From an uncultured virus (IMG/VR IMGVR_UViG_3300021256_004112) (taxonomy: Duplodnaviria; Heunggongvirae; Uroviricota; Caudoviricetes), in the IMG/VR virus record IMGVR_UViG_3300021256_004112: a stretch of DNA of 64,000 bases; one strand, 5' to 3'. The stretch's first letter is position 1; each line of letters starts with the position of its first letter. Below are positions 4,701-56,141 of the stretch, in pieces. The notes beneath the pieces are model-generated. The model did not search any database. It was not told the origin of the DNA and saw only the letters and a program-made list of their open reading frames with translations. The translations under genes and the position numbers were made by a program.

Positions 4701-4725
4701 CATCCATTCCTTTCTTTATTGACCC
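4701..4725 (+). repeat. Dispersed polarised motif copy (CCTTTCTTTATTGACCC core at 4709)
   Basis: Exact 17-mer also at 23533, 32738, 40887 and 47547; variants at 13283, 53750 and 55705; one reversed copy at 5468. Confidence 0.85.
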
Positions 4726-4839
4726 TCTTTTCCTGTACCGTTTCATTAATATCCATCCGCCTTCCACAACAGGAACAGCCAAAAGAAAGAAAAGTATTTT
4801 CTTCATCCGTTTCTTCCACATAGACAATCCATTCCTTTC

Positions 4840-5379
4840 TTAAATCAAATGCTGGTACAGTATAGCCGTAACGCTTGCTTTTGGTATTCCCAAATGGGAT
4901 GCGACCTTCCCAAGTTTCGCCGTCGGATTATCCTGTATAAACTGAAGCACGACCCGTTCCGTATCCGACAGGAACAACGGCAATACTAAAAACCGTTTTT
5001 GCTCTTTTATTAATTTAACAATTGTTTGGGACGAAACACCGATATCCTTGGCACATCCGCGGACGCCCTTTTCCGGATATTTTTTCAGATACCTTAAAAT
5101 TTCTGCCTTACGGTCTTTGTGTTGTTTCCGTCGCTCTTTACGAATCGGAGCAAAATCCACATCAGAAAGAGTGAATAAAGAAGTATGCCCTGATTTCGGC
5201 AGACATTGCATATACCGCAACGATTCATTTGTATCTATCCCGCGGATGATACAAAGCGCAAGGGCAAAATAGCCAACATCCATTGGCGAAAAAGGATTAA
5301 CATACGGTCTTTGGGTTATTTTTCCAACTACAGGACGCAATAAAGATTCCCCCTTTACAGAAACAATGTTATTCCGCAC
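4840..5379 (-). CDS. Winged-HTH DNA-binding protein (two HTH-like segments)
   Basis: GVRGCAKDIGVSSQTIVKL and AKLGKVASHLGIPKASVTAIL are HTH-like; a TTGACA..TATAAT promoter lies upstream. Confidence 0.55.
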   Translation of the reverse strand: MRNNIVSVKGESLLRPVVGKITQRPYVNPFSPMDVGYFALALCIIRGIDTNESLRYMQCLPKSGHTSLFTLSDVDFAPIRKERRKQHKDRKAEILRYLKKYPEKGVRGCAKDIGVSSQTIVKLIKEQKRFLVLPLFLSDTERVVLQFIQDNPTAKLGKVASHLGIPKASVTAILYQHLI

Positions 5380-5577
5380 AACACGTAAAACAAAATTTAT
5401 CTAATTATAATTATATGTAATACGAAATTTAATGTCAATACCAAAAAGAAAAAGAAAAGCAAAAAAAGGGTCAATAAAGAAAGAGATATAGGGAAAAACG
5501 GGAATTCCCATATCATTCCATCACAAGTATAAGAAAAAACCGCTACCAAAAATTGATAGCGGCATATTATTTTATCT

Positions 5578-6207
5578 TTATACAGGATATCTGCGTTCCA
5601 TAGTACGCTCCATCCCTTCCCGTTCCCTTTCTTTTTCCTTTTCTTTTTGGCGGATACGGCGCAGGCGATGTTTTCGGTCAGCGGAAAGCTCCTTTTTTTC
5701 TTCCTGCGACAAATCATGCCTTGTATCCATTTCGCCTACGGTCTTACCCAAAGCCAATTCAGCGGTTTCCTGCACCTGTTTCATGGTTTCGGGATTCCGT
5801 TCCGCAATCTTTTCCAAGGACTCGAGAAGTTCTTTTGCTTCGGGCATCCCATTTGCTACGCCGGCCGTCAGCATAGCCCGGGCCGCCAATGCTTTTTCAT
5901 TAGAAGACATATTATGGAATTTTTCACGGGCTTTATCTTTTCGTTCATCAAATTCTTTTTGTTTTTGCTCTACGGCTTTTTCTTCCAACTTAATGGTTTC
6001 TGAAGCCTGTTCCAGTTTCTTCATAAGCTTTTCTTTTTCATCGGGCGTTGCCTCACCCATATCTTTCAGGATTTTATTATATTCGGCAACACTGGAACGA
6101 AGATTACCGACTTCCCAATCCAATTCTGCTTTTTCATCTCTTGCCTGCCATGTAGCATAAGCTTCCTGGCAATTCTCCTCAATCTTACTATCAATTAACA
6201 TCCCCAT
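5578..6207 (-). CDS. Coiled-coil hypothetical protein
   Basis: 209 aa, E/K-rich, AGGAG RBS; C-terminus EREGMERTMERR. Confidence 0.7.
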   Translation of the reverse strand: MGMLIDSKIEENCQEAYATWQARDEKAELDWEVGNLRSSVAEYNKILKDMGEATPDEKEKLMKKLEQASETIKLEEKAVEQKQKEFDERKDKAREKFHNMSSNEKALAARAMLTAGVANGMPEAKELLESLEKIAERNPETMKQVQETAELALGKTVGEMDTRHDLSQEEKKELSADRKHRLRRIRQKEKEKEREREGMERTMERRYPV

Positions 6208-6298
6208 AATCCATATCTCCTTTAAAAATAAAATTATTTTGGGTTACCAAACCAAAGGCTTTCATTATTAAAAAGCTCTTTATAATTCATAATTAAAA

Positions 6299-8191
6299 TT
6301 AATTTCTATCATTGGTATTAGCATCACGTTCTGATGTCTTCCCCAATTTAATACCCAGCCGTTTAGCTGATGTAATAACCGTGTTCATATTCTTTGCATT
6401 ACGGAAATCAACCCCGCTGGATTCCATCCCGATGACAATTGCTTTCTCAAAATTCGTATTGGTAAGCTTCGTATCCTTATCCATGATGACGCCAATAAGA
6501 TTGGCATGAGAAAGGTTAGTATCGGAAAGATTAGCGCCACGCAGGTCAGACCCTTCCAAAACGGCATAAGATAAATCCATAGAAGATAAATCCATCCCCT
6601 GCAAATTACAATTACGCATCACTAATGGGCGTTCCGCATTTTCTTTCTGTTCCGTCATAACTTTTTCTACCTTCTTTTCTTCTTCCCAGCGGGGAACAAA
6701 GAACTGTTCCGACAAACCGTGGGAAGCAATTGTAATCATATTCCCATCTCTTTTATCCATAGGTAGGGTTATATACCCCTGCAATCCTTCTGCTCGGATA
6801 TCCCTTGCCAAATCCCGTTCTACTTCCTGCCAAGGCTTATCCAACGCTTTAGAAATTTCATCAATATTGATATGCTCTACGCCTTTTTCGTCGCTCATAG
6901 CCCGTTTAAGGCAATACAAACCTGCTTCACTTAACACAAGGGCGTTGTTTTTATTTTTAAAGATATCATTCGAATCCTTGTCCAATGAAATCGCCAACGC
7001 CAAACGGGCGGGAAGCTGCTCTGACGAAAAATCAAAAGTGCCAAGCGTAGCGGCCGGCAGATATATGGAATCTGCTTTATTTAATTTCTCCCTGCCCACA
7101 AACACATTTGCCTGACGGGTTTCATCACAGACAGTGACCTGGAAACCGTCTGAAACTTCCTTACACGATTCCACGGAGAATGGCAGGCTGGATGAAATTT
7201 TGCGTATTTCTTCTTTTTCGATACGCAGGGAAAAATCACTATCCGCTTTAATATAATCATCCTGCAGTTGTTTCAACGATTTCGACCATAATGCCTGTCC
7301 TTTAGAAGTTGTCGGGTATTTTGCCATATGTTCTTCGCTATATAAAGAAGGAATCACACAAGGCGAAATAGACATCCGCGGGTCAGCAAACAAAGTTTGG
7401 AACATAACAGGTTTCCCGTTAACATTTTTAAACGCGACATCATCAAAATCATATTTTGGAAGGTACGGATTGGAAATATTCATAACATCGTTCATCTTGT
7501 TATGTACAACCCGTAAGGCGATTAAAGCGTCTAACGGGGATTTTTTAGTGTTCAGAGAAATCGGGGTTTCTCCCTTTTCCAAAAAAGTTTGCTGGTACGC
7601 ATTATCCAATGAAACAAAAGAAGGATTTATCTTCCATTCTTCCCCTTTACGATATGCTTCCAAGCAGGAAACAGGTCCTTTTACATCCACAACACGGACA
7701 ATAGAGTTTCCATTATCTTCCATGTCAAACTGATAGCCGGTCTTGGAAAGCATCTCATGGACAAACTTGGCATCATACATCACGATATTAACAGGTTCAT
7801 CAGGAAATGCGTCCCGTAACGCTTCAAAGAAGTTAGGGATATCTTCTTTCAGTTGTGTATTAGATGGGCATTTTGCTACCATAGCAGAAGTAATGCCATT
7901 ATGTTCCGCTACTTTATCCCAATCCCGTTTAAATTCAGGATGATACAAACTGCCTGCTACAAGAGAGATAGATTCTTTGTCGTCTTGAACATAAGAAGCA
8001 CCAAATCCTTTTAAACGGATAACAGGAAAAGCGCCAGCAATTTTGGTCAACTTATCTTCAATATCTGCGCTATCCTTCTCTTTACTGGGCAAATCTGTAA
8101 CAACCGCATGCCAACGGATAACTTCATGCCCCGTATCACCAATTTGTTCATTATCAATTCCTGTTGTATCTACTTTAAAATAAACATTCAT
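6299..8191 (-). CDS. Degenerate DEDD-exonuclease-like N-terminus fused to C-terminal pentapeptide repeats
   Basis: N-terminal FKVDTTG...HNGITSAMV resembles ExoI but lacks the Glu; C-terminal NLQGMDLSSMDLSYAVLEGSDLRGANLSDTNLSHANL repeats. Start placed after an AGGAGG RBS. Confidence 0.65.
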   Translation of the reverse strand: MNVYFKVDTTGIDNEQIGDTGHEVIRWHAVVTDLPSKEKDSADIEDKLTKIAGAFPVIRLKGFGASYVQDDKESISLVAGSLYHPEFKRDWDKVAEHNGITSAMVAKCPSNTQLKEDIPNFFEALRDAFPDEPVNIVMYDAKFVHEMLSKTGYQFDMEDNGNSIVRVVDVKGPVSCLEAYRKGEEWKINPSFVSLDNAYQQTFLEKGETPISLNTKKSPLDALIALRVVHNKMNDVMNISNPYLPKYDFDDVAFKNVNGKPVMFQTLFADPRMSISPCVIPSLYSEEHMAKYPTTSKGQALWSKSLKQLQDDYIKADSDFSLRIEKEEIRKISSSLPFSVESCKEVSDGFQVTVCDETRQANVFVGREKLNKADSIYLPAATLGTFDFSSEQLPARLALAISLDKDSNDIFKNKNNALVLSEAGLYCLKRAMSDEKGVEHINIDEISKALDKPWQEVERDLARDIRAEGLQGYITLPMDKRDGNMITIASHGLSEQFFVPRWEEEKKVEKVMTEQKENAERPLVMRNCNLQGMDLSSMDLSYAVLEGSDLRGANLSDTNLSHANLIGVIMDKDTKLTNTNFEKAIVIGMESSGVDFRNAKNMNTVITSAKRLGIKLGKTSERDANTNDRN

Positions 8192-8364
8192 ATAAAATTC
8201 CTCCTGTTCTCTTATCTTTGGCTGCATTATAACAATGAATTCCTAAACACTCCCTTACCGAACGCCAATTGATAGTCTCTCAGCTTTTTACTTTATTGTG
8301 TTTTTCTATTTATCTATACGCTTATATAACATCGTTAACTTATTATGTCGGCAATTTGTTGTTA

Positions 8365-9200
8365 TGACCTGACCTCAACCGTTGTGGTTATCTTTATTTC
8401 TCGGTATTCAATTATCCAACCGATTCATCGTAACAACTTCCGGACGCAAACGATTGACACCACATGCAGATTCTCCCCCCAGGCCTGAACTCGAAAGAGG
8501 AGCGGTTGAGGCACAGGTCACCCTGACGCAGTGGATATTGTCTGACTATTCAGAATTAAACACAATATTCATTGCTTCAGGATATGACCTGTCTGATACC
8601 TCAACCGCTCCAACATAGTTTGTATTGTTTGTCGTGGTAAGTAAGATTCACCTTACAGACCCTCACTGTCAGTCGTCGCGTATATCAACACACCTCTTCG
8701 GTCACACAAGCTGTAACATCATTTACCAATAACAGTACCGTCCGTTACGTCCGTTACAGCCCCCTGGGTTTCCCCACCGGCACTCCGCATTCAAGCCGTT
8801 TCCATGGCCGCTCTCGCCGTCCTTACACACAGCCCCGGAAGAGGAAGAGGGCTTGTCCATGGCTATTTGCCTGTCAAGTGTGTAGCGGTTGTTTTCTTCC
8901 TGCACCGCGAAGCAGCAGTCGTTGTTATTCGCCCTCTTTTGCTTAGGATAAATAAGGTAGTATAAAGTTAAATTTCTCATGTACGGTAAGATTTAAATTG
9001 GTATTCAGATTAATTATGTACATGAGGGTAGCAGGAAAGAGGACGGGTATGGGAGTTTTACTGCCTCTCCCCTTTCGGATACAGCCACAGGGATTCCGAA
9101 GATTAAACGATTGCCCTGGGAAAAGAGTTATCGCATAATACGGATGGGTCTGTACCGAAAGTCCTGTCCGTCAGGTCTACGCCATAAAGGATATGAAATA
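8365..9200. ncRNA. Candidate large structured non-coding element (ncRNA or origin)
   Basis: ~1 kb intergenic gap, GC-richer than its flanks, with many inverted repeats: a 113-nt hairpin at 8499-8611 and GAAA-capped stems on the minus strand at 8760-8810. Confidence 0.4.
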
Positions 9201-9237
9201 TACAGGCGTTAGAACGCCATAAAAACAAAACGAAAAA

Positions 9238-10005
9238 TCAAATGACAAAGTAGATAGCGACAGCGGTTACGGCAAGGATACCAATAACGCCGACCATCTT
9301 TTTCCGCTGTTCTTTTTTTGCATAACGGATATTATCTTCTTCACTTTTGATGTCATCTGTAATTGAATTTTCAATATCCAAAAATCCTTCGGAAGCGTTA
9401 TAGATTTTCCCCGTCTTACGATACTGACGTTTCATCCCCGTATTATCCGAGGCAATCAATTCTAAGTACTTTTCCTTACGTTCCTTGGGGGAAGTAATCT
9501 TATCTACAATAGTGCGGATTTCTTCCGCAACTTCCTGTCCCTCAGTAAGAACGATTTCTTCCCGTTCCCCACCCATATGGCGTGGCAGGAATTCCAACTG
9601 CTGAAAAGCTTCCAAAGATTCGTAGACCGCTTTCAGTGTTTCTTCACATCCCAACTCTTTTGCTACATAAGATAAAGAAACTGCTTTCTTATCACTGAAG
9701 ATTTCCACAAACTTATCAGCCAGTAATGCGACCTGTGTATGGAACACTTTCCCATCTTGCTGATACAGGCTGTTTAAGCGTTCAAAATCCGTATTGTTAA
9801 ACATAACTAACGGATAAGCGCCTAAGAACGGTAACAGTTTTCTTGCACAGGCGGCGATGCCGTCTTTCTTTACATCCATCTCAATACGGTTCGTTTCCGT
9901 TCCGTCTTTGAAAGATATACAGGTAACCGTGGCAAGCTCTGTTTCCAGCCCTGTGGTTTCTACAGTGACGAAAGCAGTTTTAATTCCATTTGAGGAAAGA
10001 AACAT
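9238..10005 (-). CDS. Degenerate DEDD-exonuclease-like protein with C-terminal membrane anchor
   Basis: FVTVETTGL (first Asp missing), LVMFNNTDF; hydrophobic C-tail MVGVIGILAVTAVAIYFVI. Start uncertain (ORF extends to 10056). Confidence 0.55.
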   Translation of the reverse strand: MFLSSNGIKTAFVTVETTGLETELATVTCISFKDGTETNRIEMDVKKDGIAACARKLLPFLGAYPLVMFNNTDFERLNSLYQQDGKVFHTQVALLADKFVEIFSDKKAVSLSYVAKELGCEETLKAVYESLEAFQQLEFLPRHMGGEREEIVLTEGQEVAEEIRTIVDKITSPKERKEKYLELIASDNTGMKRQYRKTGKIYNASEGFLDIENSITDDIKSEEDNIRYAKKEQRKKMVGVIGILAVTAVAIYFVI

Positions 10006-10208
10006 GTTTTCACCCATATTTTTAAAACTCCTTAACGTAAATTTTGTTTTACACACCGTAAACTTGCTCTAACATGTAAAATACAATTTTTTATGCTCCC
10101 ATTATAAGTAAAAGAAAATCATTTGTCAATACCTAAAAACGTAAAAGAAAATTTGCAAAGAAAAATAAAAAACCGCCAATACAAATTGGCGGTAAAAATC
10201 TACTTGGA

Positions 10209-10598
10209 TTAAGCAATGGGCTTTTTCAGTCGTTCAGCAGTTTCAATCAGTTCTTTGGCAAAATTACATTTACGATTGGAAATAACTCTCAGCAGTTTTT
10301 CTTTCAGCTTATCCAGCGCCCATTCCTTACCAAACGCTGCGTCAAACACATCATCTGCATGGCAACGGGCGACAGCAACATAAATCGGTTTCATCGTAAT
10401 TTTTTCCCACAGTCGGCTGTTATCTTCAATTTGGATAATCGCAAGAGAATGAAACGCTTGCGGAATAGCTTTCAAGGCGAGGTCTTCACACCCAATTGCT
10501 TTCGCCACAACCATTTTCCGTTCCGAATACAGTTCCACTTCTACGGGAACGCTGATGCCAGATGATACATGCAACACCATGTTTTTATTTTGCTTCAT
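10209..10598 (-). CDS. Phage-type hypothetical protein
   Basis: MKQNK start after GAGGAG; VARCHADDVFDAAFGKEWAL motif. The longer ORF call overlaps tRNA-Ser. Confidence 0.6.
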   Translation of the reverse strand: MKQNKNMVLHVSSGISVPVEVELYSERKMVVAKAIGCEDLALKAIPQAFHSLAIIQIEDNSRLWEKITMKPIYVAVARCHADDVFDAAFGKEWALDKLKEKLLRVISNRKCNFAKELIETAERLKKPIA

Positions 10599-10634
10599 AT
10601 TGACTTCTCCTCTCAAAACTAAAATTTTCAATTT

Positions 10635-10726
10635 TGGCGGAGCGAGAGGGATTTGAACCCCCGCGCGACATCTCTGCCGCCTCACGGTTTTCAAAACCGT
10701 TCCCTTCACCGCTTGGGTATCGCTCC
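10635..10726 (-). tRNA. tRNA-Ser(TGA)
   Basis: Cloverleaf, long variable arm, loop TT-TGA-AA, encoded CCA. Confidence 0.95.
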
Positions 10727-10729
10727 ATA

Positions 10730-10804
10730 TGGCATCCCCAATAGGAATTGAACCTATATCATTGGTTTAGAAGACCAATGCTCTATCCGTTGAGCTATGG
10801 AGAT
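10730..10804 (-). tRNA. tRNA-Arg(TCT)
   Basis: Loop CT-TCT-AA, GTTCAAT T-loop, CCA. Confidence 0.92.
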
Positions 10805-10807
10805 GCT

Positions 10808-10882
10808 TGAGGTAACGGACAGAAATCAAACCTATATTGGGTGAACCACAATCACCCGTTCTGCTGATGAACTGCCGCTACC
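10808..10882 (-). tRNA. Degenerate tRNA-His(GTG), possible pseudogene
   Basis: Anticodon stem GGGTGA/TCACCC with TT-GTG-GT loop; T-loop GTTTGAT; 3' end TCA rather than CCA. Confidence 0.6.
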
Positions 10883-10896
10883 AAAAAATCAAAATA

Positions 10897-10972
10897 TGGT
10901 GACCCATCCGCGACTCGAACGCGGGACCCCCTGATTAAAAGTCAGATACTCTGCCAACTGAGCTAATGGGCC
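10897..10972 (-). tRNA. tRNA-Lys(TTT)
   Basis: Loop CT-TTT-AA, CCA. Confidence 0.95.
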
Positions 10973-10976
10973 AAAA

Positions 10977-11065
10977 TGGTGCCCAGAACAGGATTTGAAC
11001 CTGCACGAGAAACTAATCTCACTTGCACCTCAAACAAGTGCGTCTGCCGATTCCGCCACCTGGGC
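10977..11065 (-). tRNA. tRNA-Leu(GAG)
   Basis: Loop TT-GAG-GT, long variable arm, CCA. Confidence 0.95.
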
Positions 11066-11067
11066 AT

Positions 11068-11090
11068 TGGTGCGGTTGATAAGCAACCGC
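11068..11090 (-). other. Acceptor-stem microhelix with ACCA end
   Basis: GCGGTTG-CTTAT-CAACCGC-A-CCA in a tRNA-gene position of the array. Confidence 0.6.
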
Positions 11091-11094
11091 ATAT

Positions 11095-11186
11095 TGGCGG
11101 AGCAAGAAGGATTTGAACCTTCGCAGGGCTGTTCACCCCCTATCGGTTTTCGAAACCGGCCCCTTCAACCGCTTGGGTATTGCTCC
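11095..11186 (-). tRNA. tRNA-Ser(CGA)
   Basis: Loop TT-CGA-AA, long variable arm, CCA. Confidence 0.95.
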
Positions 11187-11345
11187 GTGGCTAACTGAAA
11201 TCTTAGGTTGGAAACACCTGTCACATGTATACCACCAACCGCATTTCATTCCTGCTTCGCCGAAGCCGGTTATTATCACACTCCGAAGAGCAGTTTTCCC
11301 AGCTTCTCCACAGGCTTTACATCCGACGTAGCCTCACCGTACAAA
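11185..11345 (-). ncRNA. Orphan TnpB omega-RNA/right-end-like scaffold (IS607/IS605-like remnant)
   Basis: TGTACGG...AAGCCTGTGGAG...CTTCGGCGAAGCAGGAA, then stem TGAAAT..GGTTGG/CCAACC..ATTTCA and end TTAGCCACGG. Resembles Firmicute tnpB 3' ends as recalled; not searched. Confidence 0.5.
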
Positions 11346-11573
11346 TAAGATTTATAAAACAATATCAAATGACACTGTTTTTATTAAAATGTTGGATGCC
11401 GTTTATTATTAGCGGTTAACTCTGTTTTCAACCAATAATTTTATTTACCCGATTAAATTATATTTGAAAGGTATGTTTTTATAAAAATTAACAAAAACAT
11501 CTCAGCAAAATAAAAAAGTGGTCTTTGGCATGTAACCAAAAACCACCCAAAATGTTATAAAGTTAAAATTTTA

Positions 11574-11822
11574 CTAATACCTTGAAACAGCAGAACATTG
11601 ACCACCGGATTCCACATAGCAGGTTTTCTTTCCGCCGGCTACCTGCTTCAGTACTTCGCCATCTAACTCCATATCTTCCATGTCTGCCATATAGGCTTCA
11701 GCTTCTTCTTTCGTAAGCTCAATGCCTTCCCCTTTGGCAAATTCTATGAGTTCTTCAACCGTTTCACAGGATAAGGCCTTCGCAGCCTGTTCCTTCGTCA
11801 GTTCATTTACATTAATTGGCAT
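11574..11822 (-). CDS. Nif11-like leader peptide precursor
   Basis: ELTKEQAAKALSCETVEELIEFAKGEGIELT...ELDGEVLKQVAGG followed by a Cys-containing core KKTCYVESGGQCSAVSRY. Confidence 0.85.
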   Translation of the reverse strand: MPINVNELTKEQAAKALSCETVEELIEFAKGEGIELTKEEAEAYMADMEDMELDGEVLKQVAGGKKTCYVESGGQCSAVSRY

Positions 11823-11904
11823 CACCATCACCCCCAAACTTGACATACTCCCCACAGCTAAGCCATACGGCATAAGCTCAACAACGAAATCACAGATTTC
11901 TGTT

Positions 11905-13225
11905 TACGCTTAAAGCAGGGGGATTCTACCGTCATAAGAAACCGCTATCAAAATAGACAGTCTTACGTCTCCTCTTGTAGTAACGAGGAAGATGCCCCTT
12001 CCCCGATAAAATTACATATTCGCTAAAATCCGCAATCCTTCGTTACGGATATTAATGGCAGCGTTAATATCCCTATCATGTTCTTCCCCGCAATGAGGAC
12101 AAGTCCATTTTCGTAAGCGTAAATCTTTTACGCCCGTAAACTTATGCCCACAGTCAGAACAGATTTGGGAAGAAGCGAACCACTTACCAACCTTTATTAC
12201 CTGGCAACCACATTTCTTTGCCATGTACTCCAGCTTTGTTACGAATTCACCAAAGCAAAGGTCGTGTATCTTCTTACCCCACAATTTAGCCATGCCTTTC
12301 AGAGAAAGATTTTCGATACAAATAGTGGCATAATTTCCACACAAAGCTACCGATAATTTCCACTGGAAATTATCCCGTAAATTCCGCAAGCGTTCATACA
12401 TACGGGACAGTTTATAGTTAGCCCGTAACCAATTCTTTGACTTCTTCTCGCCTTTACGCTCGCCAATCTTATGAGAACGGTTACGGTTTAATTTCCGTAT
12501 CGTATTCCGCATCTGCTTGAAAAATAACGGGGAATCAATCCGCTCGCCGGTATTAGTAGTGAGGAAATGCTTCAGTCCAAAGTCTAACCCGATGGCATCA
12601 CCCTGTCTGAGCAAGACTTCGTTGGAATCCACATCACAAACTACGAACAAATACCAGTCACCAAGAGCATTACGCTTGATGGTTACGGTTTTAATCTTCC
12701 CGTCAATTTCACGGCTTTTACTGAATTTAATACGGAAATTCTTTTGAAGTGTCAGTACATTTCCATCAAATTTATAACCTGTCTGTTTATAGGTAATGGA
12801 CTTATATTTCTGCTTGCTACAAAAATGAGGCGGATTTGCTTTATCGTTCTTTTTACGGTTACTGAAGAACGAACGGTAAGAACGACAGACGCGTTCAGAA
12901 ATATCCTGCACTGTTTGGCTGTTCAATTCACCCCAAAACAGAAAGCGTTTTTTATGAGTCATTTTCGTCAAATGTTTATTCAGCGTAAATGCGCTGACAT
13001 TCTTACCGAACAATCTATAATAGCGTTTCTGTAAGGCAATACAATGGTTATAAATAAAACAGGCAATTCCAAGAAGATATTCCAATTTACGGTTTCGTTT
13101 TGAGTTGTATATTTTAAATTTGTAACAACGCTTCATAGCCTACCTCTTTTAATAGCTGTTTTAAATATAGATTAACAAGAATCCTTATATCCCCATAGTT
13201 GAAACAAAGAGTTTTACGGGACGAA
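11905..13225 (-). mobile_element. IS200/IS605-family (IS1341-like, tnpB only) element
   Basis: Left-end-like GTAAAACTCTTTGTTTCAACTATGGGGATATAAG upstream; right-end-like AGAATCCCCTGCTTTAAGCG downstream; no tnpA. Confidence 0.75.
12012..13136 (-). CDS. tnpB: TnpB RNA-guided endonuclease
   Basis: N-terminal HTH (YKFKIY...FIYN), RuvC GLDFGLK / IENL / DRDINAAINI intact, CxxC..CxxC zinc ribbon. Confidence 0.95.
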   Translation of the reverse strand: MKRCYKFKIYNSKRNRKLEYLLGIACFIYNHCIALQKRYYRLFGKNVSAFTLNKHLTKMTHKKRFLFWGELNSQTVQDISERVCRSYRSFFSNRKKNDKANPPHFCSKQKYKSITYKQTGYKFDGNVLTLQKNFRIKFSKSREIDGKIKTVTIKRNALGDWYLFVVCDVDSNEVLLRQGDAIGLDFGLKHFLTTNTGERIDSPLFFKQMRNTIRKLNRNRSHKIGERKGEKKSKNWLRANYKLSRMYERLRNLRDNFQWKLSVALCGNYATICIENLSLKGMAKLWGKKIHDLCFGEFVTKLEYMAKKCGCQVIKVGKWFASSQICSDCGHKFTGVKDLRLRKWTCPHCGEEHDRDINAAINIRNEGLRILANM

Positions 13226-13301
13226 TGATAATTATCAACACAACTCTAATTTTTCAAAAAGACGGATTCATTTTCCCTCATCCTTTTCTTTATAGACCCC
13301 T

Positions 13302-16300: not shown

Positions 16301-16622
16301 CAGAATCATCGGGAGTGATATGAAACCACTCATTATTTTTACCCTTTTCCTGTTCCACGCCCTGCTTACGGAGATAAGAATGGAATTCCTTATCGGTAAA
16401 TCGGTCATTAGTGCCAGCATATACAGCGTTATCATGCCATTCCAGCTTCCATAAAATATCCGCCGTATGGGTCTGCTGGTTGATACGGGAAGCCACATCC
16501 TGCTCAGTATACCCAATTTTCGTCCAGCCGTCATGACGGGCAATCTCAGGAGTGGTATAGGCATAAATCTGCGGAAACGCAGGCTTGGTAGTCTGTATCT
16601 GTATGCTTGCCAACTTATTCAC
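13302..16622 (-). CDS. Restriction-type endonuclease: GIY-YIG + SF2 helicase + C-terminal MTase N-half
   Basis: IYAY...KIGYT (GIY-YIG-like), KPRFGKT, DEAH, SGTP; C-terminal QIFTPK...DLYMKSG resembling N6-MTase motifs X/I. Confidence 0.85.
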   Translation of the reverse strand: MNKLASIQIQTTKPAFPQIYAYTTPEIARHDGWTKIGYTEQDVASRINQQTHTADILWKLEWHDNAVYAGTNDRFTDKEFHSYLRKQGVEQEKGKNNEWFHITPDDSEIRFYKFRKTRGLDLDAVVIPYTLREEQQKAVERTASYAKTHPQGEFLWNAKPRFGKTLSAYDLMKQVDAKTVLIVTNRPAIANSWFEDYKKFIGQEAGYYFVSEVDALKNKAGVLTRQQFIEKLYEDENAKCIEFVSLQDMKGSIYFGGQYKKLEEVRNMDWDMLVIDEAHEGVDTYKTDVAFDNIKRKFTLHLSGTPFKALADNKFAEDAIYNWTYADEQEAKRDWQGEEDNPYGTLPKLNLFTYQMSEIVREDLKQGIEINGETVEYAFDLNEFFATNGNGKFIHESSVIRFLDALTKQEKFPFSTEELRGKLKHTFWLLNRVDSAKALAKMLQEHPVFKDYEIVLAAGDGKIDDEDENKKSFDKVKEAIASHDKTITLSVGQLTTGVTIPEWTAVLMLSNVKSPSLYMQAAFRAQNPCLFATESGFERKENAYVFDFDPARTLIIFEEFANDLSPNTASGHGSIEDRKENIRTLLNFFPVIGEDENGEMIELDAEKVLSIPRKIKSVEVVRRGFMSDFLFCNISHIFGAPKEIQDIINQFAPVEEGKLDKVNLPPDVKEDLCLNEDGEVEVTEEYIIGKEKDVFGDKVYDTQEAISEMEEHVAKDDMSSLADSIKKLVKEKQIEQIVADASDKYQLKSTEQSRLKKQLVAESDRKIDKAFAQHDINHKVLEEERKEVLQNRDKTNRTVEEIEQEYVEKKRAVNQSFKEEVSELLEKITDETKKETIATVETSQKQKEKEDIEDEVRKHLRGFSRTIPSFLMAYGDNTVTLATFDTVVPGKVFTEVTSITLDQFRLLRDGGDYIDKETGEKKHFNGQLFDAVVFDDSVKEFLALKKKLADYFDEKAIEDIFDYIPPQKTNQIFTPKTVVQRMVDMLEKENPGCFDLPDKTFIDLYMKSGLYITEIVKRLYQSEKMKALFPNKEDRLRHIFEKQVYGLAPTEIIYKIAISYILGFDDEVHIPTHNFRQVDALPYAKEGKLPELLNELFDKKEQGKTE

Positions 16623-17688: not shown

Positions 17689-17716
17689 AAAAATGTCCCC
17701 TTTTCTTTATCAACTG

Positions 17717-20048: not shown

Positions 20049-20059
20049 AATTTCACCTA

Positions 20060-21804: not shown

Positions 21805-21878
21805 TAAGGAAAGCGTACCAAAACGACCCCTTTTTTCTAAAACGGAAACAGGTCAATACTCGTCTCAAAAGAAGGAAT
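21805..21878 (-). promoter_or_regulatory. Conserved GAGAC-box promoter module
   Basis: CTCGTCTC-N3-AGAAG box with copies at 26921, 32515, 40699 and 54880. In three copies it is followed on the minus strand by TTAG(A/G)N-17-TAYGCT. Confidence 0.6.
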
Positions 21879-22215
21879 GAGGGAATGCTTCCGTCACATT
21901 GTTGAATCCTAATTAACTTTTATCAAGCGCCATTCAACTCCCCGCCCTCCCCACCGAAACGGACAGACTACGGACAAGATACGGACAGTCCCACACAAAA
22001 AAGAAGAATCCGCACCACAATGGCACGGATTTGATGAAATATGCGCATTTTCAAATTGTAGCAGCTAACCGCCGAATTTTTAGTTAATCGTCACCACGAC
22101 CACCTTTTGTTTTATCTTGCTTGACCCTCACTGACCATTTTTCCTTTGTAAACGAAAAAGAAAAGACTCCCAATGGAAAAATCCACGGGAGTCAATTTTT
22201 CTTCTATCTGCTATT

Positions 22216-23514: not shown

Positions 23515-23555
23515 TGAATTATTCCCTTCATTCCTTTCTTTATTGACCCTATTTA

Positions 23556-24177: not shown

Positions 24178-26385
24178 TCACGAAAGCAACTTTTTGAGTT
24201 TTGCCTTCAAGCCGGTACTAAATGTAATACCAAGATGTTCTTCCAACTCTTTACGATTCATTCTGATTTTAGAGTAATTGGCATCCAAAAGCTTTTCTGC
24301 CTGAATCTCACGGGGGAGAAGATTTGCCCATTTAGCCGCTTCTTTTTGTCCCGCCCAATCATTGCTTAATGAAATAGTAACATATTTTTCGTTAATTTGA
24401 AATAAGTGGTTTTCCGAATTGTACATATCATAAATCTTAGCCAGCACTTCATCATAAACCGCTTTTGAGTTATCTGCATAGTCTTCATCCCATGAAAGAA
24501 CCTTCATATAGTCAGGAACATCAAACCCGTAATCCTTAATAATTTGGATGATAATTTCTGAAGACCGCTGCATAAGTTCGGGATAATATTTATCCGTAAT
24601 CCCTTCTTTAGTGACAATCTTATCCAGCTCTGACATCACATACGGAACCATATAGGACAAATACTTCCTGTAAAAAGCCGTACCGATACGCTTCATGTAC
24701 TGCTTACCTAACGCTTCCAGCTCCGAACGGGACGTATCACTGGAAAGACCGATATCATAACTTAAGAACAGCATCCGCTTACGCAATGATTCATCGGGGT
24801 CGCTTATAACATTAGACGCAAAGATAGTTAACGGTTGGTATTCCCGCAAATTATCCTCACAGGAATCGGCTGTACGAATCATCCCGCCGTAAGTCGTCTT
24901 GAAGGATGAAACCACTTCATCAATAAAAATAGGAACACCTTTATGCATAACTTTTTCTACCGATTGAAAAGCGGTCAAATCCGCAGATTTAACTTTTTCG
25001 GATTTATACCCCAAGCGTTTCTTCCCCGTCATCATCTTTAAAAAATAACGTACCATAAAGGTTTTCCCACAATTAGCAGGGGAATTCAACAGCAGATATA
25101 ACGGTAAGCCGGATGTAGCTAAATCCTGTATAAAAGCCGTACACCGAAGCTTTGCGTTAAAGGGGGAAGAGAACATAGCGTTCATCAGTTTAAAATGATT
25201 CCTTTTAGCTTGCTTGACCTTACCGACAAAATTATCGAAATTAGAAAAGACAGCAAGAAGCTCGACAATATCGTTCCGTACTTCTTCATCAGGTGGATTC
25301 AGGAACAATTTCTCATTATCCAAATACACTTCCCCCGTTTCATAATTGGGAATCATTCGGGGATAATTTAAAGAAACTTTCTCAATCGGCATCTTCTTCA
25401 TGCTTTCTTTTTTCGCATTGAATAAATACTTCTTAATAACATTAGGGACAATCGCAATCACATCATTTTTGGCGATTAATTTCATACCCTTGAAAATCTC
25501 TGTTTGATTTTGTTTAAGAATCTCCAAATCCTTATTATGAGCAATGATTTCCATTTTCTCTTCAGGGTCGTCCACTTCCCTTACGATGATTGCTTTTTCT
25601 ACTGTGCTGGTCTGTGCGCTATTGATTATCGGATTATCTTCTATAACTGAAAACTCTTCCGCCTCTTTCCCCAGTAAATCCTTATCGGGAAGTTCTTCCA
25701 TCGGTTTATCGGCTACCCTTTCGACAATCCTTGCGCTGGGAATAATCGGGGTAGACAAGCTCCAAGCGGTTTCAAATTCCAATAAGTAGTTATCATAGGC
25801 AACAGGGTCATCGCTGACAACATAGTTCTCTAACTGATTGAATCCCACCCATGCGGTTGCCGAAATATTGGCAGACGGGATAATAACCCGTTTCCTTCCG
25901 TCGTCGGCTTTCAAGAGGTAAATCTTCCGATGGTCAACCAAAAACTGAGGAAATCTGAGTTCAACTTCTTCCTCAATAACCCGCTTCGCCAATTTTTGGT
26001 TTCGGTTCAAATTCATCTGTACTAAACAGCTTTCCGCAGAGATAGTAGACATTATCATCTGTTCGGTCTGCTTGGCCAATGCCTGATTCATCCGAAAAGC
26101 AACAAAATCAGCGCCTAAGATAATCTGCGCATGTTCAAACTTCTCCGCCAGTCTTGCAACAAAGGAAAAGTTATAAGAGAAGGAAATCACCTTCATTTCC
26201 TGAAACCCGTCAAATAAACTAAGTGGTTCTTCATATGTTGATTCCACATATTTAACCCAATGGCAATGTATCTTATCGTTATCTTCTTTTATATCGTCAT
26301 TTCGACTGACGACTGAAATCGGTTGTAACTCCGCTTCCCCAAACAAATTCATAGATATTTCATCCCGACTTGCCATGTACCGCAC
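24178..26385 (-). CDS. PLD-family nuclease fused to P-loop ATPase (putative defence protein)
   Basis: HRKIYLL...SANIS...NQLE (HKD-like); SPANCGKT Walker A; IFIDE Walker B. Confidence 0.75.
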   Translation of the reverse strand: MRYMASRDEISMNLFGEAELQPISVVSRNDDIKEDNDKIHCHWVKYVESTYEEPLSLFDGFQEMKVISFSYNFSFVARLAEKFEHAQIILGADFVAFRMNQALAKQTEQMIMSTISAESCLVQMNLNRNQKLAKRVIEEEVELRFPQFLVDHRKIYLLKADDGRKRVIIPSANISATAWVGFNQLENYVVSDDPVAYDNYLLEFETAWSLSTPIIPSARIVERVADKPMEELPDKDLLGKEAEEFSVIEDNPIINSAQTSTVEKAIIVREVDDPEEKMEIIAHNKDLEILKQNQTEIFKGMKLIAKNDVIAIVPNVIKKYLFNAKKESMKKMPIEKVSLNYPRMIPNYETGEVYLDNEKLFLNPPDEEVRNDIVELLAVFSNFDNFVGKVKQAKRNHFKLMNAMFSSPFNAKLRCTAFIQDLATSGLPLYLLLNSPANCGKTFMVRYFLKMMTGKKRLGYKSEKVKSADLTAFQSVEKVMHKGVPIFIDEVVSSFKTTYGGMIRTADSCEDNLREYQPLTIFASNVISDPDESLRKRMLFLSYDIGLSSDTSRSELEALGKQYMKRIGTAFYRKYLSYMVPYVMSELDKIVTKEGITDKYYPELMQRSSEIIIQIIKDYGFDVPDYMKVLSWDEDYADNSKAVYDEVLAKIYDMYNSENHLFQINEKYVTISLSNDWAGQKEAAKWANLLPREIQAEKLLDANYSKIRMNRKELEEHLGITFSTGLKAKLKKLLS

Positions 26386-26859: not shown

Positions 26860-27138
26860 TGTAACACCTCCGCAAATATTATATGAAAACATTATAACAT
26901 GACAGCCCAAATTTGCACTACTCGTCTCAGAAGAAGGGATTTGAAGGAAACCGTAAATTATATCCTCTCTCATCGTTTTTGGCTCGCAAAATATAATTTC
27001 ACGGGAATAAAAACATACAGCTATCTTACTATCTTATTGTTATCTTGCCTATCCACCCCAAAAAGGAAGGCAAAATAAAAGAGTGGAAGCCTTTTGCAAG
27101 AACTTCCACTCGGTAAAGGAGAGAACCATGAACGCTAA

Positions 27139-32408: not shown

Positions 32409-32977
32409 CACGCTATCCATTCCCCAAAATTCACTCTACCAACATAACAAAAAACCGTGTTTTTCTCCAAAAAACAACAACCAAAAAACAAAATTTTGAC
32501 GAAATTTACAAATTGTCTCGGAAGAAGGGATTTAGAGAAACCGTAATCTATCTCATGTTTCACCGTTTAAGGATTGCTAAATATCATTCCTCGGAAATAA
32601 AATACCAATCCGTCCCATCCCTTCATTCCCCCACCAATAATGTTAGTAATACCACCGAAAATGCTATAAAGAACACAAAAAAACAACCCCACGCCATAAA
32701 TACGGCATGGAGTTTTACGCTTATATTTCCCTTTATCCCTTTCTTTATTGACCCGTCTTTCGCTTTTATGACCAAGCCTGCGGGTAGCGTAGCATCCAAC
32801 CCGCAAGTCTAATGTCCCCCCCGCCAGCATCGCGCCCAGACGGGGTATTTTATTGTGTCGCAATATCATCATCCATCCCCCTTCCCTTGCAAAAGAAAAG
32901 GGGTAGAAGCCCTTTTTTAAAGGAACTTCTACCCAAATGAGGAGATAACCCCATGGACGCTAAATCAGTTAATATCG

Positions 32978-40598: not shown

Positions 40599-41039
40599 AT
40601 TATTTATACTCCCCTATGCATCACAATGTCATTAATACTCTTCTAAGGAAAAGCATACCAAAATAAGCTCTTATTCCTAAAACAAAAACAAACCAATACT
40701 CGTCTCGAAAGAAGAGAATAAGAGGGAAATCTACCATCCCCCTCGCACAACAAAAATCCCGCACCGAACAAAATCGATACGGGAAAAATTATTTATATTC
40801 CACTATTTTATTTTCAATTTCAATCTATTTCATTTTCTTTTCAATTTTATTCACACTTCACACGGAGCGACATATTCCCACTTATCCCTTTCTTTATTGA
40901 CCCCTTCATTCACCCCTGCAGGCAGCATCGCGTCCCGCCAGCGGGAAATTCATCGGTCGTCAGCATCGCGCCCCGACGACCGCAATGGCAAGTGGTGGAA
41001 GAAATCCACAATGCTTTTAAATATTGAGCTTACCGAGTA

Positions 41040-46780: not shown

Positions 46781-46996
46781 AAGAAAACCTCAAAAACAAA
46801 ACCGAAAATAAAAGGTCAAAGAAGAAGAAAAAGATGGAAATGAGAAATGGAATGAGTGGTCAGTAAACGAGAAACAACTTTCAAATACTGATACTGCTTT
46901 AATGCCATATCCCAGTTTTTTCTTTCTATTCCTTTTATGCAGGTAAAAAGGGCAGGTACACCGACCTGCCCTTAAAGTTAAACCGCACAATAAAGC

Positions 46997-47332: not shown

Positions 47333-47679
47333 GTGTTCTTTCTCTCCTTATAATTTAAAATTTTGGATAATGCAGGGATTAGAAAAGTTCCCAACGATTG
47401 ATATTTGTATATCCCTGTATTTCCTTTACACTCTCATTATATAACACTTATATTATATTGTCAATACGCAATTAATTAATTTTACGCAACCAAAAAGCCT
47501 TCTTTTATATCATTGCGGAATAGAAGGTTCATTTATTCCTTTCATTCCTTTCTTTATTGACCCCTGCTGGTCATTTTCCTTCTTTACCATAAGTGATTGA
47601 AATGATTGAAGGACAAGATGAACATAATCAAAATAAAAAATCCCGTACACAAACATCATGTACGGGATTAAGGAGAGGC

Positions 47680-49918: not shown

Positions 49919-50071
49919 TATACACTAATTATAGCATAATGTCAATACTATTGCAATAAGAAACCGCAATATTTCAGCATTTATAAAATAATAGCCACAT
50001 TTGCGTATTTACATTACACTGTTTATATGATATAATAAGTGTACAATAAAGAACAGGAGAGGTAATGCACT

Positions 50072-50748: not shown

Positions 50749-51894
50749 TCAATTTCTTTCATAACTTTCCGTTCTTGCATTTCCTGTATTTTCTTTCTTC
50801 AAAGCCCCTGTTTTTACAGGTTGGCGGAATAAAGTTACGGCTTTTTCTATATTTTCATGAACAGCTTTAAAGAATCCTTCTTTATCCCCTTGCAAAAACT
50901 CATTAGGGTCTTTATATTCCCCATTGACATTTCCTTCAATATACGGAAGATGCAATCGTTTCAGCGTTTCAATCATTTTTGTTTTGTACATATTTCCTGT
51001 TTTGTCGTCATCCAAGGATACAATGACGACAGCAGGAATTTTATCTTTGGCAAGTCGTTCGCCGAAAGAAGTTGCCATAGCTGCCGAACCAACGCTTACA
51101 GCATGTCCGCCTGCATAAGCAATACTTAATGCGTCAAATTCCCCTTCCACGACAAAAACAGCTTTTGGTTCCTCTTTCTTCATATGGTCATATAAAAAAG
51201 GCGGGATAACCTTTCCTGTTTTCACCTTATATTTTTTCAGATACACAGAATCATTGACCCCTCTGGCCATATAATTATTAGCATCGTAAGGAAGAATAAA
51301 ACGGGGGGAAGGATTCAGCTTAGAATCAACCTTTCCTTCAATATGCGGTGGTCGCCAGCGGGCATAATACCCTACCCCGTATTTCAGGCAAAATTCAGTA
51401 GGAATACCGCGTATTTCTTTCCATCCTGTTCGGATTAAATTTTGCTGCCCACCCCAATAGAATTTAGAAAAATCCTGTTTCTGTTTTTCGATTAACGCAT
51501 CCTGTTGCTTTTCCCGTTCCTTACGGCGCAGTTCCCGTTGTTTAAGAAGCGCTTCCTTATCATGATAATCATATGTTTCAACATCGGAAAACTGATGCCC
51601 AAAGGTATGGCGTAACGACTCAATTGCACCTCGGAAATCCGTATGTTCGGCTAATTTTACAAGGTCAATAGCCCTGCCATGTTCCTGACAACTATAACAA
51701 TTAAAGAATGGCGGTTTCCCACCTTTCCCATCAGACACATGTAATGCTCCGGTTCCCCCGCCCATACCACTGCCACAGGAAGGGCAACAATAAAAATTCT
51801 TGCCGGCTTTTGGGGATGGCTCGAGATAATGTTGCGCAATCTCCTGCAAATTTTCCGTATAAAAATCAATTTCTTCCTGCGAAACTTTTTTCAT
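50749..51894 (-). CDS. DNA primase (zinc finger + TOPRIM)
   Basis: CPSC...CYSC; VVEGEFDALS; SLDDD; YKDPNE. Confidence 0.88.
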   Translation of the reverse strand: MKKVSQEEIDFYTENLQEIAQHYLEPSPKAGKNFYCCPSCGSGMGGGTGALHVSDGKGGKPPFFNCYSCQEHGRAIDLVKLAEHTDFRGAIESLRHTFGHQFSDVETYDYHDKEALLKQRELRRKEREKQQDALIEKQKQDFSKFYWGGQQNLIRTGWKEIRGIPTEFCLKYGVGYYARWRPPHIEGKVDSKLNPSPRFILPYDANNYMARGVNDSVYLKKYKVKTGKVIPPFLYDHMKKEEPKAVFVVEGEFDALSIAYAGGHAVSVGSAAMATSFGERLAKDKIPAVVIVSLDDDKTGNMYKTKMIETLKRLHLPYIEGNVNGEYKDPNEFLQGDKEGFFKAVHENIEKAVTLFRQPVKTGALKKENTGNARTESYERN

Positions 51895-53634: not shown

Positions 53635-53744
53635 TTATTTTCTCTTGCATATCTTATCATTCTTGTTTGCTTCTACTTATTGTACACTACAAAACCAAAA
53701 GACTCCCCCAAGAAGCTTTCCTGTACATGTCCTGCTATTCCCAT

Positions 53745-54797
53745 TCATCCCTTTCTTCCTTGACCCTTTAGCCCAAATATATTAAGCCTTACAAAACCTA
53801 TACAGCTACAAACGCAATAAACGAGAATTGCTATAGCAATAGATAATGGGATGAAATACCATTTCTGTTGATATGCGCTCATATTGAATACATTCATCCA
53901 TAAACATTCCCTTATAACCGGATAATCTGAAATCAAATACACATCAAATACTACGCTTGCAATCTTATTAATCCAAACACTATGAAAGGAAATATTCTTG
54001 AACAACAAAAAGATGAAAACCGAAAGTACGAAAGTTGGGAAATAATATTTATCATAATAGTATGGAACATTTTTCCCAAACATAGGCAAATCATATCGGT
54101 TCATTAAATAATTCGTTACAACTATTTCCAGTAAAGTAAACAATAGGATTAGAAACATTAATCTTTTAGGGGAAACAGAAAAATCTTCCTCATAAAACCT
54201 TATGTATCCTGCAATTAAGAACAGATAACTAAACCACATTACATTTACAATCAAAAGATTTCGGATGATAAATTCGCCAAACGCAGAAGGTATCATAGTG
54301 GGAGTTATGCACAAAATAAGACAGGCATACAAAAGGATAATACCCAAAAACAACTTGTGTGACTTTTGCAAAATGAAATTCAAGACAGGAATCAATAAAA
54401 GCAGAAACAGATAGGTTGTTGCAAACCACCATTTATCAGGGAAGATTGCGGTCAATAACAGATTCGGACTACTTACATCTGTAAGGTTGAACAATGCCGT
54501 AAAAACGGCTAAAAAGAAGCTGTAAAATGCAAGAAGGGACACAAATTTCAAAACCCTTTTATAATCAAACCCTAATTTTATTTTAGACGACAAAAAATAT
54601 CCGGTAATCAACACGAAGACATTTACGCCTACCTCGCCCAAAACTTGTACATATCGTACAAACGCATTGTTAACGGATTCAATTTCAACATTATAATTGC
54701 CATGATAGAACATATGAAACAGTACTATGCCTACCATTGAAGTTACTCTGAGCAATTCAATATTAGCTAACCTGTTCATCTTAAAATTCCTTCTCAT
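53745..54797 (-). CDS. Acyltransferase family 3 membrane protein
   Basis: NIELLR...VLFH, GVNVFVLITGYF, WWF, multiple TM segments; AT-rich. Confidence 0.88.
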   Translation of the reverse strand: MRRNFKMNRLANIELLRVTSMVGIVLFHMFYHGNYNVEIESVNNAFVRYVQVLGEVGVNVFVLITGYFLSSKIKLGFDYKRVLKFVSLLAFYSFFLAVFTALFNLTDVSSPNLLLTAIFPDKWWFATTYLFLLLLIPVLNFILQKSHKLFLGIILLYACLILCITPTMIPSAFGEFIIRNLLIVNVMWFSYLFLIAGYIRFYEEDFSVSPKRLMFLILLFTLLEIVVTNYLMNRYDLPMFGKNVPYYYDKYYFPTFVLSVFIFLLFKNISFHSVWINKIASVVFDVYLISDYPVIRECLWMNVFNMSAYQQKWYFIPLSIAIAILVYCVCSCIGFVRLNIFGLKGQGRKG

Positions 54798-55016
54798 CCT
54801 TTTGTTTACTACATCTTTTATATTCCAAGGAAAGCGTACAAAAGCGCCATACTTAATCTAAAACAAAAACGGGTCAATACTCGTCTCGAAAGAAGGGATT
54901 TGGAAAATGCTGTATATTATATCCTCACCCGCTGTTCAATCTTTGCTAAAAAATCCCCCGCATCTGCTAAAGCAAATTGGGGGATTTTCCATTTTTACAA
55001 AAATGGCTGACAAAAG

Positions 55017-56141
55017 TTATCTAAAGTCAAAGCTATGGATTTCCTCAGAACCATCTTCTTTATAAAAAACAATATTCGTGTAACCAAGCTTCGGCTTATT
55101 CTCATTCAAAGTGAGTAAAACAAAGAACGTTTTTTCATCATGCCAATTATATTTATTATTCAAAAAGATATCCACCCGATGACCGCACTCATTACAGAAC
55201 TTCAAAAATTCTTTTTCTCTTAAAAACATTTCAACGATATCGGCAACACCTTGAAACATGTGCGTCATGTATGGTTGTGAAACAACATACACTTTCTTGT
55301 TTCCAATCCAAACGCTATTATTGTCAAATAATGTATGGCGCAAATCTGATTTCAACGCTTTCTGCAAATACGTGCTTTTTTCCAAAGTAAGGCAGGTCAA
55401 CAAATAAGACATTTCAACAGATTCCGTAATTCCAAAATCGCAGATAAAATTCTTAAACTTCTGCTTCCCCGGATTCCGTACTATGTTCATCTGCTTTACC
55501 CTCTCATGCGGGAGCGCAAACAAAATTCTTTTGTACCGTAACGCAACAGTATCCTTTGAATCTTTTTCACAATGATTGGAAGAATTCGCAACAGGAGCGG
55601 TGTTATAGGGTGAGGATTTTACATTGGCACAAGTCGAATTGCCGAAATTCGATTCATCAAAATCCTCGTGATTTTCCCCTTCGGTTTCCTTTTTCCCATT
55701 CATCCCTTTCTTTATAGACCCGCTTTTTGCTTTTTCCTCTTTTTCATCCAACGCTGCCTTCAAATTTATAATTTCTTCTTCCTGTTTTTTAATCAAATCA
55801 TACATTGCTTTCAGCATATTAACACTTTCGGTAGCACAAGCGAAAAGTCTATGAAAATCTTCCTGATTAATAGAAGTTGAATAGAGAACTTCGCCGGTCT
55901 CTTCATCTTCCTCTTCCACAAAATTCGTCCGCAGTCGGGAAAGGATGTCAGCGAGATAGTAACCATTTCTCGGACACAACTCATCCAACCTATCGAAAAT
56001 TTCATCCATTATTTCTTCATTGAGCAATTCATCCGCTTCTTTACTATTTTTAAATACAATCTTAACAGTAGTATTCTTACCAAAGCGATTCTCGGAATTC
56101 CAAATTGTTATATCCATGATTTTTTCCTTTCTTCCTTTCAT
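55017..56141 (-). CDS. Hypothetical protein
   Basis: 374 aa with a central coiled coil. Confidence 0.65.
   Translation of the reverse strand: MKGRKEKIMDITIWNSENRFGKNTTVKIVFKNSKEADELLNEEIMDEIFDRLDELCPRNGYYLADILSRLRTNFVEEEDEETGEVLYSTSINQEDFHRLFACATESVNMLKAMYDLIKKQEEEIINLKAALDEKEEKAKSGSIKKGMNGKKETEGENHEDFDESNFGNSTCANVKSSPYNTAPVANSSNHCEKDSKDTVALRYKRILFALPHERVKQMNIVRNPGKQKFKNFICDFGITESVEMSYLLTCLTLEKSTYLQKALKSDLRHTLFDNNSVWIGNKKVYVVSQPYMTHMFQGVADIVEMFLREKEFLKFCNECGHRVDIFLNNKYNWHDEKTFFVLLTLNENKPKLGYTNIVFYKEDGSEEIHSFDFR

Follow-up and report, generated by a model that had tools for sequence, protein, structure and literature searches.

A two-part DNA word on both strands of a large mobile element, a candidate array of priming sites for the element's own primase

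We analysed a 64,000-nucleotide stretch of DNA (the window), which makes up the first 64 kb of one 116,665-bp IMG/VR record of an uncultured virus (IMGVR_UViG_3300021256_004112; rated 81% complete). The record, a large mobile element from a gut bacterium, is most safely described as a large integrative element. It carries a two-part word, 5'-GTC-N3-RAAGRAR-3', which in many copies continues into a purine-rich tail and which is non-palindromic by its consensus columns. The word has a fixed spacer, is in excess on both strands and inside genes, is evenly spaced along each strand taken by itself, and recurs in a second element, and the record holds a primase gene. We propose that the sites are dedicated priming sites for the element's own primase, a reading that we regard as somewhat likelier to be right than wrong, with the reading by the primase and the start points inferred from the analysis.

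The strongest members of the family are long copies, whose minus-strand reading gives the consensus GGGTCAATAAAGAAAGGRAT and then a looser purine tail, about 28 nt in total, with conservation ending sharply at the 5' edge. A previous sequence-only reading of the window had described them as a polarised motif of about 30 nt, and its coordinates proved right: the 17-mer is exact at 4709, 23533, 32738, 40887 and 47547, has one mismatch at 55705 and in the reversed copy at 5468-5484, and has two mismatches at 13283 and 53750. The gaps it had reported between successive copies were likewise correct (8574, 10250, 9205, 8149, 6660, 6203 and 1955 nt), its last gap of 8.2 kb omitting the copy at 53750. 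Beyond the window, long copies stand at 75553, 90194, 99468 and 105863, together with a weak one at 69273, and in the whole record 13 lie on the minus strand and 1 on the plus strand. Scanning the record with a 33-column matrix gave 12 copies scoring 37-48 against 23.5 for the best of 30 shuffles, the matrix being trained on the same 12 copies that were scored. The regular spacing also held up, since the eight minus-strand copies of the window had a coefficient of variation (CV) of 0.38 against uniform placement (P 0.007) and against random gene junctions (P 0.006). The 13 minus-strand long copies of the record gave a CV of 0.41 against random gene junctions (P 0.0006).

However, the idea that the signal is confined to one strand was not borne out. 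Self-comparison exposed a second family on the plus strand (21862, 26924, 32515, 40702 and 54883), and the same core was found inside genes on both strands. All three kinds of site, the long minus-strand copies, the plus-type copies and the short antisense copies within genes, align on GTC. Treating the plus-strand family as the long motif with a 10-nt insert was dropped, as the realignment on GTC fits better. The minus strand of the 116.7-kb record has 24 copies of the core and the plus strand has 16 (12 and 9 in the window), whereas 40 protein-preserving shuffles gave 4.8 (maximum 10) and 2.3 (maximum 5), respectively. GTC is the top trinucleotide 6 nt 5' of RAAGAA on both strands, in 17 of 239 cases on the plus strand (2.5 expected) and in 25 of 472 on the minus strand (4.2 expected). 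Across the record, spacers of 2 or 4 nt showed no enrichment, the spacer being fixed at 3 nt, and neither did the triplets GAC, CTG, GTT and GCT in the position of GTC. In a de novo scan of triplet-gap-pentamer words the core ranked first, and it ranked second, behind an A-run word, once the 14 long copies, the adhesins and the tRNAs were masked. The dinucleotide 5' of GTC is variable (GG in 13 of the 40 sites, TC in 6, AG in 5, TT in 4, CG in 3 and others in 9), with GG in most long minus-strand copies and TC, AG or CG in many other sites. No shared fold or conserved hairpin was found at the sites, and the motif is less paired than the flanking sequence, whether folded as RNA or as DNA.

Twenty-one of the 40 sites lie wholly inside genes, in several reading frames. 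Against 300 synonymous shuffles, the sense copies numbered 15 (4.5 expected, maximum 12) and the antisense copies 6 (1.4 expected, P 0.003). Spacing was even on each strand of the whole record: the minus strand has CV 0.58 (P 0.003) and no gap above 10.3 kb, the plus strand CV 0.52 (P 0.004) and no gap above 16.4 kb. The evenness vanished when the strands were pooled (CV 0.84, P 0.17). A slightly different pattern gave P values of 0.015 and 0.087. Table 1 collects the sites of the window. As a separate observation, the plus sites at 21860, 40700 and 54881 share a flank of about 85 nt at 80% identity (21803-21885, 40642-40728 and 54824-54899), and each stands upstream of an accessory gene, namely a methylase, a QueC-like and an acyltransferase gene.

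Table 1 Sites of the word and candidate reader proteins in the window.
Feature	Position	Strand	Remarks
Long site, type GG-GTC-AAT-AAAGAAAGGRAT + purine tail	4698..4725	-	overlaps ribosome-binding region of open reading frame (ORF) 3809-4693
Long site	5468..5495	+	between terminator and TTGACA-17-TATAAT promoter of double helix-turn-helix (HTH) gene
Long site	13272..13299	-	3 nt past stop of restriction-helicase gene
Long site	23522..23549	-	occupies 41-nt gene junction
Long site	32727..32754	-	intergenic, ahead of terminator-like hairpin
Long site	40876..40903	-	intergenic
Long site	47536..47563	-	between terminator of HU-like ORF (read from sequence) and sigma70-type promoter
Long site	53739..53766	-	embedded in last codons of acyltransferase gene
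Long site	55694..55721	-	within ORF 55017-56141
Plus-type site, TC-GTC-TCR-RAAGAAGGRAT	21860..21885	+	self-comparison, core match
Plus-type site	26922..26947	+	same type as 21860..21885
Plus-type site	32513..32538	+	240 nt from minus-strand site 32754
Plus-type site	40700..40725	+	200 nt from minus-strand site 40903
Plus-type site	54881..54906	+	same type as 21860..21885
Core + GGGAT site	24592..24617	-	within ORF 24178-26385
Core + GGAGAT site	58041..58066	-	within methylase-region ORF
Short-core site	3016..3032	+	intergenic
Short-core site with purine tail	46813..46838	+	core match
Short-core site	58556..58572	+	antisense within methylase-region ORF
Stand-alone primase, 381 aa, proposed reader	50749..51894	-	Cys4-type zinc ribbon + TOPRIM, conserved EG and DxD residues
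Orphan protein with two HTH-like repeats, candidate reader in operator model	4840..5379	-	flanked by two long sites

For the search outside the record, we used the exact 20-mer, which gave 2 single matches in species genomes, none in viral contigs and 16 metagenome loci. Seven of the latter are identical to the record, and one, L013, is independent. The remaining eight are single matches without protein match to the record and were treated as chance, although two of them (L008 and L009) score high. L013 is a 10-kb metagenome contig without DNA similarity to the record but with similar gene types, and it holds 5 core copies (3 plus, 2 minus) where 0.23 are expected. Two long copies stand 6.5 kb apart, each directly past a stop codon, with two plus-type copies on the opposite strand and one more copy within a gene. 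Since four of these five copies had been seen before the pattern was fixed, L013 serves as a partial hold-out only.

The co-occurrence of SLH domains and outer-membrane proteins in the record points to a Negativicutes host. As to host chromosomes, which the sequence-only reading had suggested scanning, the word was not enriched in those examined: four chromosomes of the probable host class hold 6-37 matches per 1.8-2.5 Mb, compared with 34 per 117 kb in the record, a core density 20-90 times lower. This comparison replaced a pooled set of chromosome loci (8 vs 0.8), which was discarded as a control because half of the loci had been chosen by the motif. The 17-mer with 1 mismatch was at control level in 401 genomes of a class presumed to be Negativicutes, to which a BamA match had led. 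No relative emerged from viral scans with the HTH protein, the primase, a primase alignment and two other patterns, and PLSDB and phage searches gave distant proteins only, or nothing. The primases in the 401 presumed-Negativicutes genomes and in 140 genomes of the G575 family were distant only, and a further search yielded nothing beyond short partial matches. The word GGGTCTTT, shared by plasmids with homologous primases, was dropped as support because 9 of 10 checked copies read K-D-P in an antisense frame, several being the primase's own motif. A plasmid region with a distant primase homolog (L103, CP026658.1) carries four intergenic copies of GGGGGTCTTTAG at 11931, 20133, 30844 and 37717, which are 7-11 kb apart and in mixed orientation, at least two of them in the loop of a long hairpin.

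The putative reader is a stand-alone primase (Table 1), which sequence profiles place in the zinc-ribbon/TOPRIM fold class. Its acidic motifs are conserved across four relatives, its cluster comprises 58 proteins, and it matches a primase/helicase PHROG weakly. In the mechanism that we propose, the word would be a strand-specific start signal read on a single-stranded template by this enzyme. Initiation would take place at GTC, and the free bases on its 5' side would be copied first; the enzyme would bind through the purine block (RAAGRAR plus tail), which lies at a fixed distance 3' of the triplet and would thereby single out a few among 2231 GTCs. Selection would maintain a site every few kb on each strand, the largest gap on the minus strand being the 10.3 kb given above, so that either strand could be copied when exposed by replication, recombination-dependent replication or transfer. 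The array on the second strand would be needed by recombination-dependent replication, restart or single-strand transfer. The strongest copies stand at gene junctions, where their purine tail could double as a ribosome-binding site. Selection within genes in both orientations, evenness per strand that is lost on pooling, lack of structure, a fixed triplet, a free 5' side and a conserved 3' side are together what would be expected of a primase signal on a single-stranded template.

The replication mode is likewise inferred. At 4-fold sites the T-A skew amounts to +0.26 in genes on the minus strand and to -0.11 in those on the plus strand, and this flip of sign with gene strand suggests one main replication direction, in which the minus strand, with more and stronger sites, would be the usual lagging template. 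More broadly, in a family of large mobile elements of gut bacteria a TOPRIM primase may have shifted from triplet recognition to a long two-part code, with a fixed priming map on both strands every few kb, intragenic where needed, and the lengths of its fragments would then be under the element's own control and not depend on the host primase; this wider claim is tentative, and we place it a little below an even chance.

The closest known parallel is bacteriophage T7. According to PMC12839067, T7 primase starts at GTC and uses about 6-37 of 504 GTCs, chosen by the 10-nt 3' side; active priming sites of gp4 read 5'-(G/T)2GTC-3' with a 10-nt 3' flank, which is A/T-rich at +1 to +8 and has TA, TG, GA or GG at +9/+10; and Okazaki lengths are 1-6 kb. 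The element resembles T7 in its fixed GTC, the top triplet at a fixed offset on both strands, in freedom further 5', in the information on the 3' side, in the use of a small subset of GTCs, in kb-scale spacing and in encoding a zinc-binding and TOPRIM primase. It differs in that its 3' block is far more specific, lies at a fixed 3-nt distance and has a tail of up to about 20 nt, in that its arrays occupy both strands, and in that its primase is a stand-alone protein of 381 aa rather than a gp4-type primase-helicase. The +1 to +8 positions are also unlike those of T7, with 7 of 8 positions A/T in only 15 of the 40 sites.

Several observations weigh against the proposed priming array. (G/T)2 precedes GTC in only 18 of the 40 sites, and +9/+10 is AA in 28 and AG in 12, never TA, TG, GA or GG. 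Since these finer T7 rules are not followed, a site of the element works like a T7 site at most and is not a T7 site. Gaps of 6-10 kb (16 kb on the plus strand) are longer than T7 Okazaki fragments. PDB holds no sequence that matches the primase, so the GTC specificity is not transferable from T7. The core pattern was defined after inspection of the data, about 7 of the 40 core matches are expected by chance, and within the window alone the evenness of the core pattern is not significant (P 0.20 and 0.11), which makes the plus-strand evenness the weaker result. A distant relative of the element in a species genome (G575:C42), which shares ERF, RecD2, SSB and a 28%-identical primase with the record, has 7 loose matches against 1.8 expected and no standout word, and 12 public records and 6 other genome loci with 24-34% identical primases showed no core excess.

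Extended priming signals are already known from the T7 flanks, from ssiA/ssiB of RSF1010, from Frpo/ssi and from SogL transfer. In RSF1010 (IncQ), ssiA and ssiB are read by RepB', with one 40-nt hairpin per strand within oriV, and RepB' is a primase of the archaeo-eukaryotic primase (AEP) class that binds 5' of the start (PMC8567376). In the proposed reading, the element would share with RSF1010 long, dedicated and element-specific priming signals on both strands. It differs in that about 40 unstructured sites (16 and 24 copies, less paired than their flanks) are dispersed over 117 kb, in that its primase is of the TOPRIM class and in that the conserved bases lie 3' of the triplet. Pfam, PHROG and NCBIfam scans of the proteins of the 81%-complete record (the family scans below) gave no AEP-class primase. 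The Frpo, ssi and sso signals of conjugative plasmids are stem-loops that the host RNA polymerase reads, or number only a few per plasmid (PMC7690428), and transferred primases such as SogL are treated in PMC8406263. These systems resemble the proposed sites in serving to convert single-stranded element DNA to duplex, whereas no transfer genes were identified in this record. Full-text searches of open-access papers turned up no description of a dispersed two-strand array of priming sites on a large bacterial mobile element.

The main rival to the priming-site reading is an operator or partition-type site that an element protein, such as the double-HTH protein (Table 1), would bind as duplex for global regulation or DNA organisation. 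Its model is the set of KorB sites spread over RK2; at KorB operators and parS, ParB-family proteins bind palindromes. The double-HTH gene has a long copy on either side, one of them 30 nt upstream of its promoter, a long copy precedes the promoter at 47467, and tandem HTH repeats could conceivably read a non-palindromic site. Like a KorB/parS system, the element has about a dozen strong sites over its length, and sites occur near promoters as well as between and within genes. We nevertheless consider this rival unlikely. The word is non-palindromic and its spacing is even per strand yet not when pooled, which a duplex binder does not predict; a near-consensus promoter lies within 200 nt at only 4 of the 19 long or plus-type sites tested; and the HTH protein has no full-length relative beyond near-identical strains, yet the word is present in the unrelated L013. 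The family scans of the incomplete record gave no match to the ParB/KorB family. The same evenness per strand, non-palindromic site and lack of a ParB match in the incomplete record weaken the partition or nucleoid role, one of three options that the sequence-only reading had listed for a replicon-scale signal; another of them, a priming site, fits best.

A strand-specific signal other than priming, at which the DNA would be nicked or the element's recombination enzymes would stop or load in Chi-like fashion, is less probable than the operator. It would also require evenly spaced copies per strand, and the element encodes ERF, a NinB-like protein, RecD2 and exonucleases. However, the family scans gave no HUH or relaxase match in the record, and known Chi words are short and continuous whereas this word has a gap and a free 5' side.

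It is very improbable that the signal acts at the RNA level, as a ribosome-binding block, as an antitermination site or through pairing of minus-type and plus-type copies in a transcript. Six long copies lie directly ahead of start codons, and both in L013 and at 40903/40702 pairing is possible between a minus-type and a plus-type copy on either side of a terminator. Yet the pair at 32754/32515 does not fold like that at 40903/40702, plus and minus sites lie near each other at borderline significance (P 0.05), and the family scans gave no NusG or sigma-factor match. Rfam gave no match for the motif, its matches in the window being tRNA and tmRNA only. The data support a replicon-scale DNA signal, as the earlier reading had it, rather than a ribosome-binding site or an insertion-sequence end: a long copy stands within 45 nt of the start in only 6 of the 98 minus-strand genes, copies inside genes exceed the protein-preserving null in sense and antisense, and two copies lie between a terminator and a promoter. 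The ribosome-binding role is best seen as co-option of the purine tail. Apart from this, GC-rich hairpins on the minus strand (32834, 40932 and 40970) have a common loop word, CGCGATGCT; within the record they are confined to positions directly 5' of the long sites 32754 and 40903.

We give still less credence to a KOPS/SRS-like guide for a DNA translocase. The purine block resembles the Bacillus SRS octamer, and the long copies are 13:1 on one strand, but the core is 16:24 across strands and so lacks the strand skew, which largely contradicts such a guide. The SRS octamer itself occurs only 2+2 times, and the fixed GTC is left unexplained. With the word on both strands and no enrichment in the four chromosomes of the probable host class, the KOPS/Chi-like option of the earlier reading is weakened as well. 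As improbable is a recombination site for gene-cassette capture or remnants of insertion sequence (IS) or miniature inverted-repeat transposable element ends: an integrase lies 150 nt from the copy at 105863, and strain contigs from two runs cease aligning 8 nt past the copy at 23549, but there are no inverted arms, no interior shared by facing copies and no target duplications seen, copies lie within intact genes in several frames, and the ends and guide region of the TnpB element lack the word. Three other candidates were rejected, namely a TnpB guide or target-adjacent motif (no match to the word), a sigma-factor promoter (no constant -10 box) and a promoter of a phage single-subunit RNA polymerase (no polymerase match in the family scans; antisense and intragenic copies).

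By what rule DnaG/T7-type primases choose a handful of sites among thousands of triplets is still an open question (PMC12839067), and the element offers a natural, high-information answer that is open to simple testing. If the priming-site reading is true, the element would provide an orthogonal primase-site pair and a sequence marker for finding and binning poorly known elements, and its replication mode could be read from sequence. If it is false, the word is still a selected DNA signal on two strands.

The record is classified as a provirus, and its minus strand holds 98 of the 111 curated genes. Besides the primase, ERF, SSB, RecD2, NinB-like and exonuclease genes, it has 23 tRNA genes and one tmRNA, SLH/YadA-type adhesins, a BamA-like protein, methylases, TnpB, a CCA-adding enzyme and a tyrosine integrase with an excisionase-like neighbour. 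The family scans of its proteins found no virion, relaxase or type IV secretion families. Strain relatives of about 95% identity were found in three other runs, one of them labelled a sheep metagenome, and contigs of runs X2, X3 and X4 and of the RNA run X13 were compared over 3701-23700. A degenerate long site stands at 22127 (region 22100-22160), where run X2 appears to have a full copy; this would imply gain or loss of the site between strains, or else a duplication at the joint. A TnpB-only insertion of IS200/605 type, with catalytic-type motifs intact, occupies 11839-13228, and X2 and X3 contigs join across it.

The integration module (105462-107650 in record coordinates) consists of the excisionase-like gene, the tyrosine integrase and then the 3' half of a tRNA-Trp (107516-107565), which is flanked by two 29-nt direct repeats and looks like an attP site. 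Among 103 ORFs encoding 100 aa or more, 13 have ER or GR as their last two residues, and many orphans carry charged C-terminal tails; the observation concerns mainly 75000-116665 of the record. This is reminiscent of proteins of conjugative elements, although the record showed no transfer genes. The adhesin genes at 27139-32408 and 32978-39589 each have a short head-to-head ORF on the plus strand (31761-32408 and 38954-39589) that repeats the ESPR N-terminus, with inverted arms such as 30846-31122 / 32127-32403 (79%), which look like invertible N-terminal cassettes. A C5 DNA methylase with intein domains lies at 57249-61191, split over two overlapping reading frames. The distant relative G575:C42 has CRISPR arrays whose repeats resemble those of type V-A. 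A separate family of sigma70-type promoters was seen in the window (5378-5458, 10071-10182, 50001-50046 and 61220-61331) and further on in the record (65270, 72512 and 83208), and most of its members are followed by a common operator-like word.

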